In this document: positions 10,650-18,861 of the stretch, piece by piece | How the letters are laid out: the number at the start of each line of letters is the position of its first letter | How positions within the stretch are numbered: position 1 is the first letter of the stretch | Source: Microcoleus sp. N9_A2 | Lineage (GTDB): Bacteria > Cyanobacteriota > Cyanobacteriia > Cyanobacteriales > Microcoleaceae | Assembly: GCA_036701775.1 (NCBI GenBank) | Contig: JAUBRH010000074.1 | Direction: 5' to 3' (one strand) | DNA: 26,604 nt | Translations under genes and position numbers: made by a program | The notes under the pieces: model-generated | The model's input: the letters and a program-made list of their open reading frames with translations, nothing else | What the model was told of the DNA's origin: nothing | Databases searched by the model: none

Positions 10650-11438
10650 TCAATCTCGCAATCCTCGATCGCGCAACCAAGCCTCTGCCCAAATTGTATC
10701 GGCTTCTGACAGCGGTGGTATGACTTCCCAGTTGCGATAATCTATCTTGAGGTCATAACTTGCTATGTCGTAAATTTGAGTGAATAATTCCTGCAAATTG
10801 ATTATAGGTTCGGTATCGCCCGATCGCAGCGGTAAAGGAAAGGCAGGCAGCGGGTTCTGCACGTTAAAAGCGTACAAATCTGCTCTGGGACGGCGATTTC
10901 CCCGACACACCAAAACGCTATAGTGGCTTTCAATGTCATTGCCAATAACTGGCATTTTTTGACCGCGCCGCAATAAATCTATTTCAATTAAATGAGTGCG
11001 ACTGGATAAAATTTCTTCTCGCTTTTCTTCGTACATTTGTCGTCCTTTTCCTGTGCGCTTATTGCTAGGCGAGAGGATTTCTATCAGGGTGATTAGTTCT
11101 TGGTTTCCTCTTTCTCTAATTTCTAAATAGCCTTCCCGAACCTGGTAGGGCATGGGAATATTTACTGTCAAGGGTTGTGTTGGTGGCGCTGCAACGGCTA
11201 CGTTTGATGTGATTAATTCGGTTGTAGTTCTTGGCTGAATTACGTTTACATCAGGAATGCCAATTGATAAATTGTCGTCAGCGGTTTCATACATTCTCAC
11301 TTCTACAGACACTAAATACTTAGGACGTAATTGCGGAGATAATAATCGGGCAATTTCAATAATTAGCCAGTGGTGTAGGGCAGGCCAGAGTTCGGGATGC
11401 TCTAAATACGGGTCCATACCGGGAAAGGGAGATGGCAT
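10650..11438 (-). CDS. DUF4058-like protein (possible PD-(D/E)xK / Uma2-like nuclease fold)
   Basis: The N-terminus MPSPFPGMDPYLEHPELWP is, as I recall, the hallmark of DUF4058. The segments IGIPDVNV ... YLEIRE ... LIEILSPSNK resemble the PD...E.K arrangement of Uma2/DUF820 endonucleases. Confidence 0.7.
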   Translation of the reverse strand: MPSPFPGMDPYLEHPELWPALHHWLIIEIARLLSPQLRPKYLVSVEVRMYETADDNLSIGIPDVNVIQPRTTTELITSNVAVAAPPTQPLTVNIPMPYQVREGYLEIRERGNQELITLIEILSPSNKRTGKGRQMYEEKREEILSSRTHLIEIDLLRRGQKMPVIGNDIESHYSVLVCRGNRRPRADLYAFNVQNPLPAFPLPLRSGDTEPIINLQELFTQIYDIASYDLKIDYRNWEVIPPLSEADTIWAEAWLRDRGLRD

Positions 11439-12176: not shown

Positions 12177-12296
12177 ACTGATTGTGCGTAAACGACGGCT
12201 CTTGCGTTAGCACTTTTTACACGATACTTGCGTATATTGGAATTTTCCGGCTGTAGACTAGAGTCAGGAGTTGTTCAGTTTGCCGGAGTTATATTA

Positions 12297-12794
12297 ATGC
12301 CAATTAATCGTCTGTCTGATATACAAGAGAACTTGGAAGATCTGCAAGAGCAATTAGGCGGCAAGCAGAAGGCTCTAAATTTAGCACCGCAAGAAGAAAA
12401 AATCCGAATTAAACAGCAAATTCGAGAGCTACGCAAGGAAATTAGGGAACAGGAAGAGGAGTATTGGCAGGTTCTCGATCGGCAAACGAAAACAGTGGAG
12501 ATTGCTGAACCGGAGGCTGAGCTTGAGATTATTGTTGCTGACATTGTCGAAGAAGTTGGGCAAATTGAAGTGCAGCGACAGTATCCCGATGAGGTGGTTC
12601 AGATTTTGCAGCAGATTCGGGACAAGCTGAACCAACCGGGACCGACAGCGGCCGCGAAACTCAAAGGCGTAATCTCCAGCATTCCGCCGTTTGTGGGAAT
12701 TTCCTACGAGGCTGAATTGGATACAGAGAATTTTTTACAGCAGCATTTCCCAACGTTTCGGAAATGGGCTAAGGTATTAGCAAAAAAGTCCTAG
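12297..12794 (+). CDS. Coiled-coil protein (165 aa), probable N-terminal module of the downstream STAND NTPase
   Basis: GGAG lies 8 nt before the ATG at 12297. The first ~85 aa are heptad-like and E/K/Q/R-rich (LEDLQEQLGGKQKAL...IRIKQQIRELRKEIREQEEEYW). The C-terminus contains a short hydrophobic segment, AAAKLKGVISSIPPFVGISYEAELD. The ORF ends 1 codon after an A_AAA_AAG heptamer. Confidence 0.7.
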   Translation: MPINRLSDIQENLEDLQEQLGGKQKALNLAPQEEKIRIKQQIRELRKEIREQEEEYWQVLDRQTKTVEIAEPEAELEIIVADIVEEVGQIEVQRQYPDEVVQILQQIRDKLNQPGPTAAAKLKGVISSIPPFVGISYEAELDTENFLQQHFPTFRKWAKVLAKKS

Positions 12795-12823
12795 ACCTGG
12801 AGGAAAAAACACCCAATCCAGGT
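12782..12823 (+). other. Putative -1 frameshift signal: slippery heptamer A_AAA_AAG plus downstream stem-loop
   Basis: The zero frame reads gcA AAA AAG tcc TAG. The -1 frame continues GTC CTA GAC ... into the NB-ARC ORF. A stem pairs ACCTGGA (12795-12801) with TCCAGGT (12817-12823), 6 nt after the heptamer. Confidence 0.45.
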
Positions 12824-12898
12824 TTCACAAGTTCTTACAAACTTTACGATATTCCCTCCGAACTTGGTTCCAAAAACTTTGTCGGGCGGGATGAAGAG

Positions 12899-15571
12899 AT
12901 GCAGCAATTGCACGGATTGTTGCAGGATGGGAGCCGCGTTGCGATCGCCGCTGCGTCGGGAATGGGCGGCATCGGCAAGACAGAATTGGCATGGCAATAT
13001 GCAAACTTTCACCGCGATTACAATACCTATTCAGCCGGGATTTGGTGGCTGTTTGTGCGGGAAATGGGTTTAGCGCCGCAGGTGTTGCAGAAATCGCTGC
13101 GAATGGGAATTCAGCCGCCGGATACTCTGGAAAATCTGGAGGAACGGTTGCAGTTTTGCTACGAAGAGTGGGCAAAAAAAACCTCTGGGAATGCTCTGCT
13201 GGTATTGGATGATGTCAGTGATTACCGGGCGGTGCAGTCGTTTTTGCCTAGAAATCCCCGGTTTAAGGTGTTGCTGACAGCGCGACAAATTGTGCCGCCG
13301 CCTGTTGGGTGTTTGCCGTTAAAAGTGTTGAAACCGGAGGCAGCGCTAAACTTGCTGCGACTGACGGCTGGGGATTTGCCGGGAAACAAACTCAGACGGA
13401 TTGATGCCCAGCTTGAAGATGCTCAAGCGCTTTGTCAGTGGTTGGATTATTTGCCTTTGGGCATTGAACTGGTGGGGCGCTATCTGTGGCGCAAGCGGGC
13501 GCTGTCCTTGGCAGAAATGCTGCAACGGTTGCAGAGTCAGCGATTGGAGGCGCGGGCATTGCAGGAGGCGGAAGCTGGGATGACGGCTAGGCGAGGAGTG
13601 GCAGCAGCCTTTGAGTTGAGTTGGGAGGAGTTGAAACCTCCCGCGCGGACGCTGGGGTGTCTGCTGAGCGTGTTTGCTCTGGCTCCGATTCCTTGGGAGT
13701 TGGTAGCCGACTGTTTTCCAGATTGGGATGAGGAGGATTTGGAGGATTGTCGGGATTACGAACTGCTGGAACAGAGTTTGCTGTCGCTGGTGGAGGATGA
13801 AACCTCAGATCCGGCTCAATCTGGGCTGGTGCAGGCACGCTATCAACTTCATGCTTTGATTCGGGAGTTTTTTGCGGCCAAATTGCAGGGACGCGCCGAT
13901 GCTGAGAATTTGCAGAGAAGTTTTGCGACGGTGCTGACAGCGGTGGCGAAGACGATTCCGCAGACTGTGACGCTGGAGGTGCAGGAACGGGTGAAAGAGG
14001 CGCTGCCCCATTTGGAGCTGGTGGCGGAGCAATGGTCGCATTTGCTGGAAGATAGTGATGCTACGTGGTCTTTTACAAGGTTAGGGGTGGTTGCCCAGGA
14101 ACAGAGTTTGTGGGCAGAGGCCCAGAAGTGGTTGAAAGCTTGCCTCCAGATGACAGAGAAACGCTGCGGAGCTGAACATCCTGAGACGGCAAAGAGTTTG
14201 AACAATCTTGCAGAGCTATACCGTGCAATGGGTCGCTACCCAGAGGCGGAACCCTTGTATGTGCGATCGCTCTCTATTGACGAGCAACAGCTCGGAGCCG
14301 ACCATCCCTATACGGCAAGTAGTTTGAACAATCTGGCAGTCCTGTACAATGCAATGGGTCGCTACGCGGAAGCGGAACCTTTGTATGTGCGATCACTCTC
14401 GATCTGCGAACAGCAGCTCGGAGCCGACCATCCCAATACGGCTCAGACTTTGAACAATCTGGCAGCCCTGTACGGTGCAATGGGACGCTACCCGGAGGCA
14501 GAACCCTTGTATGTGCGATCGATCGCGATCTGCAAGCAACAGCTCGGAGCCGACCATCCCGATACCGCAAGTAGTTTGAACAATCTGGCAGAGCTATACC
14601 GTGCAATGGGACGCTACCCGGAGGCAGAACCCCTGTATGTACGATCGCTTTCGATCCGTGAGCAACAGCTCGGAGCCGACCATCCCGATACCGCAAGTAG
14701 TTTGAACAATCTGGCAGCCCTGTACCATGCAATGGGTCGCTACGCGGAAGCGGAACCCTTGTATGTGCAATCGCTCTCGATCTGGGAGCAGCAGCTCGGA
14801 GTTGACCATCCCGATACCGCAAGTAGTTTGAATAATCTGGCATGGCTGTACAATGCAATGGGGCGCTACTCGGAGGCGGAACCCTTGTTAGTACGATCGC
14901 TCTCGATCTGCGAGCAACAGCTCGGAGCCGACCATCCCAATACGGCAACGAGTTTGAACAATCTGGCAGAGCTATACCGCGCAATGAGACGCTACTCGGA
15001 GGCGGAACCCTTGTTAGTACGATCGCTCTCGATCTGCGAGCAACAGCTCGGAGCCGGCCATCCCAAGACGGCAAGTAGTTTGAACAATCTGGCATTGCTG
15101 TACGAGTCAATGGGACGCTACCCGGAGGCAGAACCCCTGTATGTGCGAGCCCTCACGATTAACGAGCCGCAGCTCGGAGTTGACCATCCCGCTACGGCAA
15201 GTAGTTTGAATAATCTGGCAGAGCTATACCGTGCAATGGGGCGCTACTCGGAGGCGGAACCCTTGTTAGTACGATCGCTCTCTATCCATGAGCAACAGCT
15301 CGGAGCCGACCATCCCGATACCGCAAGTAGTTTGAACAATCTGGCAGGGCTGTACGATGCAATGGGTCGCTACCCGGAGGCAGAACCGCTTTACCTGAGA
15401 GCATTAGAAATCTTGTTTAACCGATTGGGAGAGAATCATCCCAACACCCAAAAAGTTTGGAGCAATTTCATTGATTTTCTCTGGGATGCGATATCAACGG
15501 GTCAAGACTCGCAACTTTCCCAGCATCCAATAACGCAAGCAATGCTTAAGCGACTTCGGGAGACGGAGTAG
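12899..15571 (+). CDS. STAND NTPase: NB-ARC domain followed by ten KLC-type TPR repeats. The coding frame is open upstream to 12773, so the true N-terminus probably lies upstream of this ATG.
   Basis: The P-loop is GMGGIGKTELA, Walker B is LLVLDDV, and LLTAR and YLPLGIELVG (GxPLA-like) are also present. These are followed by ten 42-aa TPR units of the form LNNLAxLYxAMGRYxEAEPLYVRSL. The conserved lead-in NFVGRDEE lies immediately upstream of the listed ATG. Confidence 0.9.
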   Translation: MQQLHGLLQDGSRVAIAAASGMGGIGKTELAWQYANFHRDYNTYSAGIWWLFVREMGLAPQVLQKSLRMGIQPPDTLENLEERLQFCYEEWAKKTSGNALLVLDDVSDYRAVQSFLPRNPRFKVLLTARQIVPPPVGCLPLKVLKPEAALNLLRLTAGDLPGNKLRRIDAQLEDAQALCQWLDYLPLGIELVGRYLWRKRALSLAEMLQRLQSQRLEARALQEAEAGMTARRGVAAAFELSWEELKPPARTLGCLLSVFALAPIPWELVADCFPDWDEEDLEDCRDYELLEQSLLSLVEDETSDPAQSGLVQARYQLHALIREFFAAKLQGRADAENLQRSFATVLTAVAKTIPQTVTLEVQERVKEALPHLELVAEQWSHLLEDSDATWSFTRLGVVAQEQSLWAEAQKWLKACLQMTEKRCGAEHPETAKSLNNLAELYRAMGRYPEAEPLYVRSLSIDEQQLGADHPYTASSLNNLAVLYNAMGRYAEAEPLYVRSLSICEQQLGADHPNTAQTLNNLAALYGAMGRYPEAEPLYVRSIAICKQQLGADHPDTASSLNNLAELYRAMGRYPEAEPLYVRSLSIREQQLGADHPDTASSLNNLAALYHAMGRYAEAEPLYVQSLSIWEQQLGVDHPDTASSLNNLAWLYNAMGRYSEAEPLLVRSLSICEQQLGADHPNTATSLNNLAELYRAMRRYSEAEPLLVRSLSICEQQLGAGHPKTASSLNNLALLYESMGRYPEAEPLYVRALTINEPQLGVDHPATASSLNNLAELYRAMGRYSEAEPLLVRSLSIHEQQLGADHPDTASSLNNLAGLYDAMGRYPEAEPLYLRALEILFNRLGENHPNTQKVWSNFIDFLWDAISTGQDSQLSQHPITQAMLKRLRETE
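14195..15454 (+). repeat. Ten tandem 126-bp coding repeats (42-aa TPR units) with very high internal identity
   Basis: The period of 126 nt was verified at 14195 and 14321. Units begin AGTTTGAACAATCTGGCA. Long stretches are identical between units. Confidence 0.9.
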
Positions 15572-17451: not shown

Positions 17452-18861
17452 ATGAAAAATCCCCGACGTTCGCCCGATCGATTCCGCCACAGCCGTAGTT
17501 CCCGCAGCCAGCAGTTTTATCAGTCCCAAGCTGTTAGCCAACAAGCTTTTCAGCCTCCATATCCGTTGAGTTGCGAAGGCGCGGAAAGTTCGAGTTCCCC
17601 AGAAACGGCCGTAAAGTGCGATCGGGAAATTGCGATTTTGCTGCTAGATGCAGAAAACTTGAAACTCGACATTAATGCGGAAAAGTTTTTAGCCAGTTTG
17701 TGCAGCTATCCCCTGCAAGTTAAGATTGCTTTTGCTAACTGGAAAAACCCCAGCACCGGTAAGCTGGATACTGAATTGTACGATCGCGGTTACGAACTAA
17801 TTCACGCTCCGGGCGGCGCTAACACCGCTGACGGTAAAATGATTGCCTTTGGTGCTGCTATTTTATACCGCTATCGGGATGTCCGAGAAGTTTTTGTTTG
17901 TTCCTCCGACGGTTTGTTAAATCACCTCTGCAATCAACTTCAAAATCAGGGATTGACTGTGTTTCGGGTGCGTAGTCAAAATGCTGTATTGTCTATAGAA
18001 AATCATCTGACTGGGGAGAGGAATCACTATTCTTGCAAAGAGGAAGTGGAACTCCCTACTTTTGCAGAACTGGCAAATAAAATTGCCGAGTTGCTGAAGG
18101 CAGAACACCAATCTATCGAGGAGCGGATAGCTTGGTTTTCTAGTATTACTCAACTTTTTCAAGAGCGCCGCGCTATCGAATTAACTTCTATAAATTCCAC
18201 CAATATAGAAGCATTCGCATCATCCCCAAAAGATATAACCTGCGAACCAAAAGAACCTGCAACTTCCGACGTTGTTGGCGCAAACATTGAGTACGAAAAA
18301 TTGCCAGAAACTGTCCCTGCTGATCCCGTGACGATCGATTCACTGGAAGTCTTAGAAAATATACTTGTAGAAATTATTGAATCAGAGATAAATAATTTCC
18401 CAAATAATGCTATTAATGTAGCTGAGCTTAAAAAAATATTTTTCATCCGATGTCAAGTTCAGGCCGATCATATAGTGAAAACTTTCTTGGTTGATTCCAG
18501 TTTAGTCAAATTTTTGAAATCGCGTCCTTCTGTATTTCAATTGACATCGAGCGGGAGCGAACATCACGTGAGGATAGTCCAAAAATCTTCGGATTCAAAC
18601 ACTTCTCCATCTGCCACACTGGAATCATCTTTAGCAAAAATTTTGATAGCTTTAACCGCTCAATCTCCAGGTGCTTACATTTCGACTATCCTAGTAGCAG
18701 GTGAATTTAACAAGCAATACGGTCAACCAATTACTAAAAAGCTGAAATCGCTGGATTTGGGCGAGAAATTTCTAGATTTTTTGCAGTCTTGTCAAACATT
18801 TAAAGTCAAGAAAGAGGGTAATGATTATCAAGTGGCGATCGCCCCTGGCTCATCTTTTTAA
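17452..18861 (+). CDS. NYN-domain (PIN-like RNase) protein with C-terminal OST-HTH/LOTUS-like domains
   Basis: The NYN core is IAILLLDAENL ... ANTADGKMI ... VFVCSSDGLL, with acidic residues present. The C-terminal segment FNKQYGQPITKKLKSLDLGEKFLDFLQSCQTFKV is typical of OST-HTH. The protein is a paralog of 25174-26604. Confidence 0.8.
   Translation: MKNPRRSPDRFRHSRSSRSQQFYQSQAVSQQAFQPPYPLSCEGAESSSSPETAVKCDREIAILLLDAENLKLDINAEKFLASLCSYPLQVKIAFANWKNPSTGKLDTELYDRGYELIHAPGGANTADGKMIAFGAAILYRYRDVREVFVCSSDGLLNHLCNQLQNQGLTVFRVRSQNAVLSIENHLTGERNHYSCKEEVELPTFAELANKIAELLKAEHQSIEERIAWFSSITQLFQERRAIELTSINSTNIEAFASSPKDITCEPKEPATSDVVGANIEYEKLPETVPADPVTIDSLEVLENILVEIIESEINNFPNNAINVAELKKIFFIRCQVQADHIVKTFLVDSSLVKFLKSRPSVFQLTSSGSEHHVRIVQKSSDSNTSPSATLESSLAKILIALTAQSPGAYISTILVAGEFNKQYGQPITKKLKSLDLGEKFLDFLQSCQTFKVKKEGNDYQVAIAPGSSF

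Follow-up and report, generated by a model that had tools for sequence, protein, structure and literature searches.

How the sensor protein of a STAND-type system is translated when its reading frame has no start codon ahead of its first conserved domain is the question raised by a locus of the cyanobacterium Microcoleus sp. N9_A2. The locus lies in a stretch of 26,604 nucleotides (contig JAUBRH010000074.1 of assembly GCA_036701775.1), referred to here as the window. It consists of two overlapping open reading frames (ORFs). ORF1 (12297..12794, + strand) encodes in the 0 frame a 165-aa product, an all-alpha module in an AlphaFold2 (AF2) model, and the downstream frame, ORF2, encodes an NB-ARC NTPase with tetratricopeptide repeats (TPR). 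The public annotation (GenBank/PGAP) describes two separate genes, a 'hypothetical protein' and an 890-aa 'tetratricopeptide repeat protein' starting at the ATG of 12899..12901 (+). A first-pass annotation of this DNA had proposed that the two frames are joined by slippage at an A_AAA_AAG site, giving two products. Our comparison of related loci supported this proposal, and a programmed -1 ribosomal frameshift of the dnaX or IS3-orfAB type at the boundary between the module and the STAND NTPase is very probably how the sensor is made.

The 3' end of ORF1 reads gca aaa aag tcc TAG, with the slippery heptamer A_AAA_AAG (12782..12788, +) in the 0 frame. The P-site AAA would be at 12783-12785 and the A-site AAG at 12786-12788, and the 0-frame stop TAG (12792..12794, +) is located one codon past the heptamer. 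The NB-ARC/TPR ORF lies in the -1 frame of ORF1, which is open from 12773 to 15571 (932 codons). It opens 9 nt 5' of the heptamer and continues for 126 nt with no ATG, GTG or TTG until ATG 12899, translating as GISKKVLDLEEKTPNPGFTSSYKLYDIPSELGSKNFVGRDEE-M-QQLHGLL...GMGGIGKTELA. The codon following a -1 slip is GTC (12788-12790), and the -1-frame part of the fusion ORF (12788..15571, +) comprises 927 codons and a stop. Together with ORF1 codons 1-164 it gives a predicted fusion of 1091 aa in the order module-linker-NB-ARC-TPR, close to the size of about 1,090 aa estimated earlier. The trans-frame peptide predicted across the junction is WAKVLAKKVLDLEEK (junction peptide VLAKKVLDLEEK). The linker VLDLEEKTPNPGFTSSYKLYDIPSELGSKNFVGRDEE (12788..12898, +), which would be read only after the slip, has no start codon and includes the beginning of the NB-ARC domain. 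All positions that had been assigned to the end of ORF1, the heptamer, the opening of the -1 frame and the GTC codon were reproduced in the sequence.

The position of ATG 12899 was evaluated against the domain profiles. Pfam search of the extension aligned position 2 of the NB-ARC profile to D40 and position 1 of AAA_16 to N35. Both residues precede M43, the residue encoded by ATG 12899, indicating that this ATG falls inside the NB-ARC domain (PF00931, 48.4 bits vs a cut-off of 23.5; 12890..13555, +, extension residues 40-261), as the first-pass annotation had noted for the conserved lead-in. M43 is the last position of the FVGRDEE-M lead-in, and the same position is occupied by Leu in the homolog from Stenomitos frigidus (L019). 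The Walker A motif GMGGIGKT was read from the sequence at 12959-12982 (+). The C-terminal sensor array (14167..15387, +) repeats a 126-nt (42-aa) unit 9.7 times in tandem and matched TPR_12 in 11 stretches (E=1e-193).

The conservation of this arrangement was examined in 70 loci, consisting of the window and 69 related loci from a one-genome-per-species scan (21 loci), metagenome contigs (L022-L060; 12-sequence alignment) and the contigs of eight distant representatives (L061-L069), with lineages defined at 70% identity. We counted loci in which an in-frame X_XXY_YYZ heptamer precedes the stop of ORF1 by 0-9 nt and is covered by a -1 ORF of at least 100 codons or running off the contig. The arrangement was present in 59 of the 70 loci, representing 19 lineages; as a rough expectation, a few percent of random ORF ends would carry such a heptamer. 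The heptamer was AAAAAAG in 50 of these loci, AAAAAAA in six and GGGAAAA or GGGAAAG in three, and the stop codon was found 0 or 3 nt past it in 54 of the 59. The 11 exceptions were three truncated ORF1s, four stand-alone genes (L016-L018, L021), one short -1 ORF (L036) and three in-frame fusions with an A7 run.

The two-frame layout, the heptamer and a downstream hairpin were kept in all 21 loci of the Microcoleus clade with an intact ORF1, and the same arrangement was seen in 18 further lineages, down to approximately 35-45% protein identity. In the window and 14 Microcoleus loci, the DNA was gcAAAAAAGtccTAG or a near variant; the -1 ORF of those Microcoleus loci (735-932 codons) opened 21 nt before the stop, and its first start codon was an ATG located 105 nt past the stop. 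The Stenomitos locus, at 59% identity, had gcA_AAA_AAG TAA followed by a 763-codon NB-ARC/TPR -1 ORF, in which the equivalent of M43 is Leu and the first start codon appears beyond FVGRDDEL. No ATG, GTG or TTG preceded the FVGR/FTGR lead-in of the NB-ARC ORF in the window's clade, L019 or L029. More than 450 close homologs of ORF1 were detected. Among the 120 listed, nearly all were stand-alone 163-aa proteins from Microcoleus, and all 120 ended in KK-x-stop. All homologs begin with MPINRLSD, at the position of ATG 12297.

The pattern of substitutions demonstrated, at the sequence level, coding selection on the -1 frame upstream of ATG 12899. Among 22 sequences, the 54 nt before this ATG contained seven variable sites, six of which were third positions of the -1 frame. 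The changes at these positions were synonymous except for one E-to-Q codon in L027; the seventh site fell in this codon too, at position one. Over its first 57 nt, the extension behaved as a variable linker. A MAFFT-based scan gave a nucleotide diversity of 0.03-0.10 at 12782-12901, compared with 0.10-0.17 in the flanking coding sequence.

The composition of the slip site also pointed to tandem tRNA slippage. The codon before Lys-Lys was gca, cca, gta, cta or aca, corresponding to five amino acids (A/P/V/L/T), and its third base was always A, although only 33% of ORF1 codons end in A. The two Lys codons were AAA followed by AAG, against an ORF1 background of AAA:AAG of 83:44. Three canonical heptamers, A_AAA_AAG, A_AAA_AAA and G_GGA_AAA/G, occupied one and the same place. 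As G_GGA_AAR, found in L067-L069 again with an adjacent stop and a hairpin, is not a homopolymer, its presence argues for tandem tRNA slippage rather than slippage of RNA polymerase or a pure Lys-Lys constraint on the protein. A_AAA_AAG is among the heptamers linked to high frameshifting efficiency in E. coli (PMC4066793).

A stem-loop downstream of the heptamer (12793..12825, +; arms 12793-12801/12817-12825 with a 15-nt loop) was found by folding. It has 9 bp, seven of which form the perfect Watson-Crick stem 12795-12801/12817-12823 that had been recognized earlier together with its extension by G-U and A-U pairs. Its minimum free energy (MFE) was -12.5 kcal/mol (z -2.1), and 5 of 200 shuffled sequences were equally stable. 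The spacer is 4 nt from the heptamer to the hairpin and 6 nt to the perfect stem. When the 45 nt past the heptamer were folded for the 18 lineages with a heptamer, the mean z was -2.27 and the mean MFE was -14.3 kcal/mol, compared to -0.14 and -8.0 kcal/mol in control windows inside ORF2 (n=53; Mann-Whitney p=1.2e-5). The stems started 0-7 nt past the heptamer, and their sequences were unrelated between lineages; L019 had a perfect 11-bp stem (GTCTCCCGATC/GATCGGGAGAC), L029 a 14-bp stem and L065 a 13-bp stem. A role of the hairpin as an intrinsic terminator was rejected, as it has no T-run and the terminator scan found none there. Non-canonical starts in the extension (CTG 12797, ATT 12776/12851) were likewise rejected, since no such codon was conserved across lineages, unlike the heptamer.

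Natural variants of the A run gave further information. In L049/L050 an A7 run resulted in an intact 722-aa module-NACHT protein, encoded on 97-kb and 187-kb contigs. The locus of Microcoleus sp. SVA1_B3 (L014, 4460-4560) also had an A7 run and an in-frame open frame of 683 codons. Separately, the protein of SVA1_B3 was found to have no NB-ARC domain, as ...AKKVVD is directly followed by the TPR sequence HPDTATSLNNLA; this could reflect a genuine deletion or a collapsed assembly of the repeats. The distant relatives P0176, P0189 and P0222 were in-frame module-STAND fusions, and the predicted trans-frame protein of the window aligned to P0176 in a single high-scoring segment pair spanning the junction (E=3e-36), with KVLAKKVLDLEEK...IPSELGSK..FVGRDEEM against KRALKKVVGIAPRR..IPSNLGSR..FVGREAEL.

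These observations can be combined into the following predicted sequence of events. Ribosomes would start at ATG 12297, and most would stop at TAG 12792 to release the free 165-aa helical module as the default product. A fraction, with tRNA-Lys on AAA in the P site and on AAG in the A site, would be stalled by the hairpin at 12793-12825, 4-6 nt downstream, slip one base back on A_AAA_AAG and read GTC at 12788. The shifted ribosomes would go on for 927 codons to complete the 1091-aa module-linker-NB-ARC-TPR protein, so that one mRNA would yield both a free module and a module-tipped sensor in a ratio set by the slip efficiency. That slippage takes place in vivo, and how efficiently, we infer from these signals.

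Several observations weigh against this frameshift. It is predicted from sequence and comparison. In L065, L068, L061 and L067, a start codon is located 12-54 nt past the ORF1 stop, making a separate ORF2 formally possible there. Within the Microcoleus clade, ATG 12899 is conserved throughout, and a clipped NLR from its own initiation is possible as an additional product; the stem is conserved with no compensatory changes, and it is weakened in 4 of 22 sequences (L005, L023, L007, L015). In-frame fusions also have Lys-Lys where the module ends, and constraint at the protein level could explain part of the AAA/AAG conservation. The shiftiness of AAG in E. coli is due to the absence of tRNA-Lys(CUU), and the tRNA repertoire of Microcoleus may differ. 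Finally, the SD-like (Shine-Dalgarno-like) element AAGG noted earlier upstream of the heptamer was indeed present (12771-12774, 7 nt 5' of it), but is weak here: its predicted anti-SD pairing of -5.5 kcal/mol ranked only at the 18th percentile of ORF1 windows, and AAGG was replaced by AAAG in four orthologs (L001, L003, L022, L023). The SD-like element thus appeared unconvincing as a stimulator in the Microcoleus clade. In some other lineages the pairing was stronger, with five at or below approximately the 5th percentile and two more at 8-10%, and several had strong G-rich SD-like elements 8-16 nt upstream (TGAGGG, TAGGGGAG, GGGAGG, GGCGGGGG). The AAGG of the window is part of TAAGG (12770..12774, +), which also contains the last -1-frame stop (TAA 12770-12772). 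In most lineages the last -1-frame stop was likewise only 2-4 codons 5' of the heptamer, within TAAGG, TGAGGG or TAGGGG, and it may belong to an SD-like element or prevent -1 products from being made prematurely.

Transcriptional slippage, in which RNA polymerase would add an A to the A6 run and a fraction of A7 mRNAs would encode the fusion, was judged unlikely for this A6 locus, the only one to which this estimate applies. Natural A7 alleles do encode fusions, and PMC3711429 reports cassette frameshifting of 10% for A7, 40% for A9 and 63% for A11. In the lineages L039, L040 and L051/L055 the slip site is an A9 run located 6-9 nt 5' of the stop, and no hairpin follows it (z 0.05 to 1.1), a pattern typical of transcriptional realignment. 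Within the gene family, slippage thus seems to have switched from the ribosome to the polymerase, and transcriptional slippage is the likely route in these lineages. They are also the only ones with an A9 run; the run of the window, A6, is below the length of approximately 8-9 or more A/T needed for transcriptional slippage. Moreover, every heptamer keeps the X_XXY_YYZ phase, no useful level of transcriptional slippage is possible in lineages with G_GGA_AAA/G, and a position-specific hairpin with an adjacent 0-frame stop stimulates the ribosome and not the polymerase.

Two ordinary adjacent genes, with the NLR starting at ATG 12899, Lys-Lys-stop being a natural C-terminus and the hairpin being incidental or regulatory, were considered slightly less probable still. 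PGAP calls this start and all Microcoleus-clade loci keep it, Lys-Lys also closes the module in the in-frame fusions, and stand-alone modules exist with no downstream ORF (L016-L018, L021). Initiation at M43, however, would lose the FVGRDEE lead-in, which Pfam places inside NB-ARC/AAA_16, and the 54 nt before the ATG evolve as coding sequence in the -1 frame. Stenomitos, L029 and other homologs have Leu at the M43 position, with the first start deeper in the domain. An independent start also leaves unexplained the third-position A, the G_GGA_AAR sites, the position-specific hairpins and the A7 fusions. Initiation at ATG 12899 may coexist with the frameshift as a minor route. An origin as an artefact or through decay (an error in sequencing the homopolymer, a pseudogene made by a recent 1-nt deletion or phase variation in the A run, the mundane options considered in the first-pass annotation) is extremely improbable, because, although homopolymer runs are indel-prone and A7 does occur in the ortholog L014 and the paralogous lineage L049/L050, 50 loci, taken from metagenomes and separate assemblies, have A6G followed by a stop, the KK-x end was present in all 120 homologs listed, GenBank lists exactly these two ORFs under four protein accessions each (from Microcoleus sp. 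N9_B2 and its relatives), and ORF2 is intact over 932 codons and under purifying selection.

The frameshift reading gains a wider context from the module itself. Profile search collected 254 clusters of the module family at 50% identity, most members being approximately 165 aa long. Among 76 representatives of that size, 33 ended exactly in KK and 46 had KK within the last six residues. The AF2 model, built from 42 sequences, was all-alpha with a pLDDT of 81.6, showing a long helical hairpin at residues 3-66 and then four or five helices of shorter length. AAAKLKGVISSIPPFVGISYEAELDTE, the best-conserved motif in the family, includes a low-confidence loop in this model. In the window (12682-12723, residues approximately 129-142), the motif PPFxxxSYEaELDTE follows AAAKLK and is modelled as a loop between helices, with pLDDT below 50 at residues 133-139; it could be an interaction or cleavage motif. 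ORF1 matched no Pfam family at threshold, and a Foldseek search of the module model against PDB returned nothing meaningful. PADLOC gave no match to Avs or any other defence model; ORF2 hit a TPR model of generic type, and ORF1 had weak hits to coiled coils. Membership in EAD9, the effector-associated domain (EAD) family that matched best, was not supported: the score was 13.8 bits against a cut-off of 25 (E=0.008-0.05), and the match was confined to 5 of 42 members and to their N-terminal helical hairpin. An amyloid-signalling (BASS/Bell-like) idea, prompted by a resemblance between the C-terminal ORF1 motif PPFVGISYEAELDTENF and NPGFTSSYKLYDIPSELGSKNF in the NLR linker, was also set aside, as the resemblance did not recur in other lineages such as the linker of L019.

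The module was found on many kinds of protein. It was in-frame and N-terminal to nSTAND1 (P0189), AAA_16+TPR (P0222), TPR, a periplasmic-binding domain (PBP; P0237) and GUN4 (P0194), and C-terminal in NACHT, LRR-Roc-COR, SNF2 and TRADD-N proteins. In its occurrence, free or at either terminus of STAND, GTPase, VMAP and TRADD-N proteins in filamentous cyanobacteria, the module fits the architecture by which Kaur et al. 2020 (PMC7159879) define EADs as small non-enzymatic domains on diverse proteins. The partners encoded by the -1 ORFs were similarly varied: NB-ARC+TPR (window, L019, L029, L056), NACHT (L038), nSTAND4 (L040), NPHP3_N or nSTAND1-like (L057), nSTAND1 (L065), AAA_16+TPR (L061, L068), GUN4 (L043), VMAP-C (L044) and PBP (L054). 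GUN4, PBP and STAND partners were joined in-frame to the module in some relatives and via the -1 site in others, which indicates that the module and the slip site travel as a unit. On balance, it is probable that the module with its 3' cassette (heptamer, adjacent stop and hairpin) is a portable unit shuffled onto at least seven kinds of partner (NB-ARC-TPR, NACHT, nSTAND1/4, VMAP-C, GUN4, PBP), and that recoding is a general and so far unrecognised means by which conflict systems of cyanobacteria and other multicellular bacteria obtain, from one mRNA and at a fixed ratio, both the sensor tipped with the module and the module in free form as an adaptor or effector.

The possible purpose of producing the module in both forms is based on this EAD-like distribution and on analogy with adaptor/NLR assemblies. 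The module is tentatively regarded as an effector-associated or adaptor-like domain. Its free copies might plausibly be homotypic assembly partners on the oligomerised sensor, as ASC is with NLRs, or could serve as a buffer against auto-activation; we hold both suggestions with low confidence. A profile search of the window in six frames found no copy of the module besides ORF1, and an EAD-type second copy here would be the free ORF1 product itself.

The locus shares features with several known systems. In the IS3 family (IS911, IS150), the small upstream orfA ends just past A_AAA_AAG, the -1 downstream ORF has no effective start, a downstream structure and sometimes an upstream SD sequence are present, and the shift gives a fusion of an N-terminal module with a C-terminal enzyme, the short product also being functional (see also PMC5009743). 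Unlike these elements, the present locus is not mobile but single-copy and syntenic, and its partners are STAND NTPase/TPR and other conflict-system domains. E. coli dnaX (tau/gamma), as described in PMC3711429, has the identical heptamer, a similarly spaced hairpin and an upstream SD-like element, and its frameshift sets the stoichiometry of two products with a common N-terminus. There the shift truncates the protein (gamma), whereas here it would extend it approximately 6.6-fold, and the SD-like element is weak in this clade. For the tail assembly chaperones G/GT of phage lambda, the short product likewise outnumbers the fusion, which is extended at the C-terminus and made at a low, fixed ratio, and G_GGA_AAG/A recurs in some lineages here, but the proteins and the biology are unrelated and lambda needs no strong hairpin.

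With EAD-bearing bacterial STAND systems (Kaur et al. 2020, PMC7159879; 2021, PMC8195603) and Avs/bNACHT, the locus shares the combination of a helical, non-enzymatic module at the N-terminus with a STAND NTPase and a sensor made of TPRs, as well as the recurrence of the module on many core proteins, at either terminus, in multicellular cyanobacteria. It differs from them in that neither paper describes frameshifting, no effector-fused second copy is nearby, the EAD9 match is sub-threshold and PADLOC gives no Avs match. The GeneTack survey (Antonov et al. 2013) describes clusters, such as Mg-chelatase and DUF111, in which two annotated genes are joined by a conserved A-rich slip site and in-frame fusions in other taxa serve as support; these belong to other gene families and mostly have long A runs (transcriptional or mixed). 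The present family was not found among the clusters discussed in the sections of the survey that were covered.

Some further features of these loci were noted. ORF1 is preceded by a Shine-Dalgarno sequence, GGAG (12285..12288, +), read from the sequence 8 nt 5' of ATG 12297. The genes flanking ORF1/ORF2 in the window are housekeeping genes, and the locus, present as a single copy, keeps its synteny in the different species of Microcoleus. A DUF4058 gene (10650-11438, -) is the divergent upstream neighbour, and an NYN-domain gene (17452-18861, +) lies farther downstream, past a UbiD gene. The tRNA scan detected no tRNA gene in the window. The 126-nt unit copies of the ORF2 TPR array match one another at 84%. 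The length of the -1 ORF in orthologs (735-932 codons) probably varies through changes in repeat number, and such arrays are prone to assembly collapse. In the metagenomic locus L022 (3992-4350), which is 92% identical, the -1 ORF has just 118 codons with the slip-site cassette intact, and this could be due to sensor decay or an assembly error. In Tychonema sp. (L017, 4496-4560) and an Oscillatoriales metagenome-assembled genome (L018, 1173-1240), stand-alone ORF1 homologs are followed by tandem GGGCATA repeats and no -1 ORF; L017 retains A_AAA_AAC before the stop. A HicA toxin gene is located immediately 5' of the module gene in one lineage (L061:2416-2876, L062:190-417), with a UPF0150/HicB-like gene ahead of it in L061, and approximately 1.2 kb upstream, with three genes between, in a second lineage (L063:1519-1749). 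This neighbourhood could be a defence-island context or a coincidence.

Full-text searches on frameshifting in STAND, NLR or NB-ARC proteins, in cyanobacteria and in anti-phage or conflict systems, together with the GeneTack survey, a 2016 review of recoding and recent STAND papers, yielded no description of this case, in agreement with the earlier statement that no prokaryotic STAND precedent was known; the word 'frameshift' was absent from the two papers by Kaur et al. (PMC7159879, PMC8195603) and from the paper on diversity-generating retroelements (DGR) and STAND proteins. The mechanism itself is of a known kind. What appears to be new is that it occurs in STAND sensors of the NLR-like type and in related conflict-system proteins, that its conservation spans the family while the heptamers are interchangeable, and that the module-plus-cassette unit is portable.

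To our knowledge, only a small number of cellular bacterial genes outside mobile elements have a conserved -1 frameshift, among them dnaX, copA, csoS2, cdd and Mg-chelatase. If the frameshift is real, a large family (254 clusters) would be added to them, and it would be the first case in NLR-like STAND sensors. Public annotations would then misdescribe the sensor, whose N-terminal module would have been missed by surveys of domain architecture. The series of A6G with a hairpin, A9 with no hairpin, G_GGA_AAR with a hairpin and A7 in-frame represents a natural experiment on switching among ribosomal slippage, transcriptional slippage and gene fusion, and synthetic biology could draw on the family for compact frameshift cassettes of cyanobacterial origin. 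How much free module is made per sensor would be set intrinsically by the slip efficiency, with the coupling of adaptor or effector testable through the heptamer, and the system would be a bacterial counterpart to the adaptor:sensor stoichiometry of inflammasomes.

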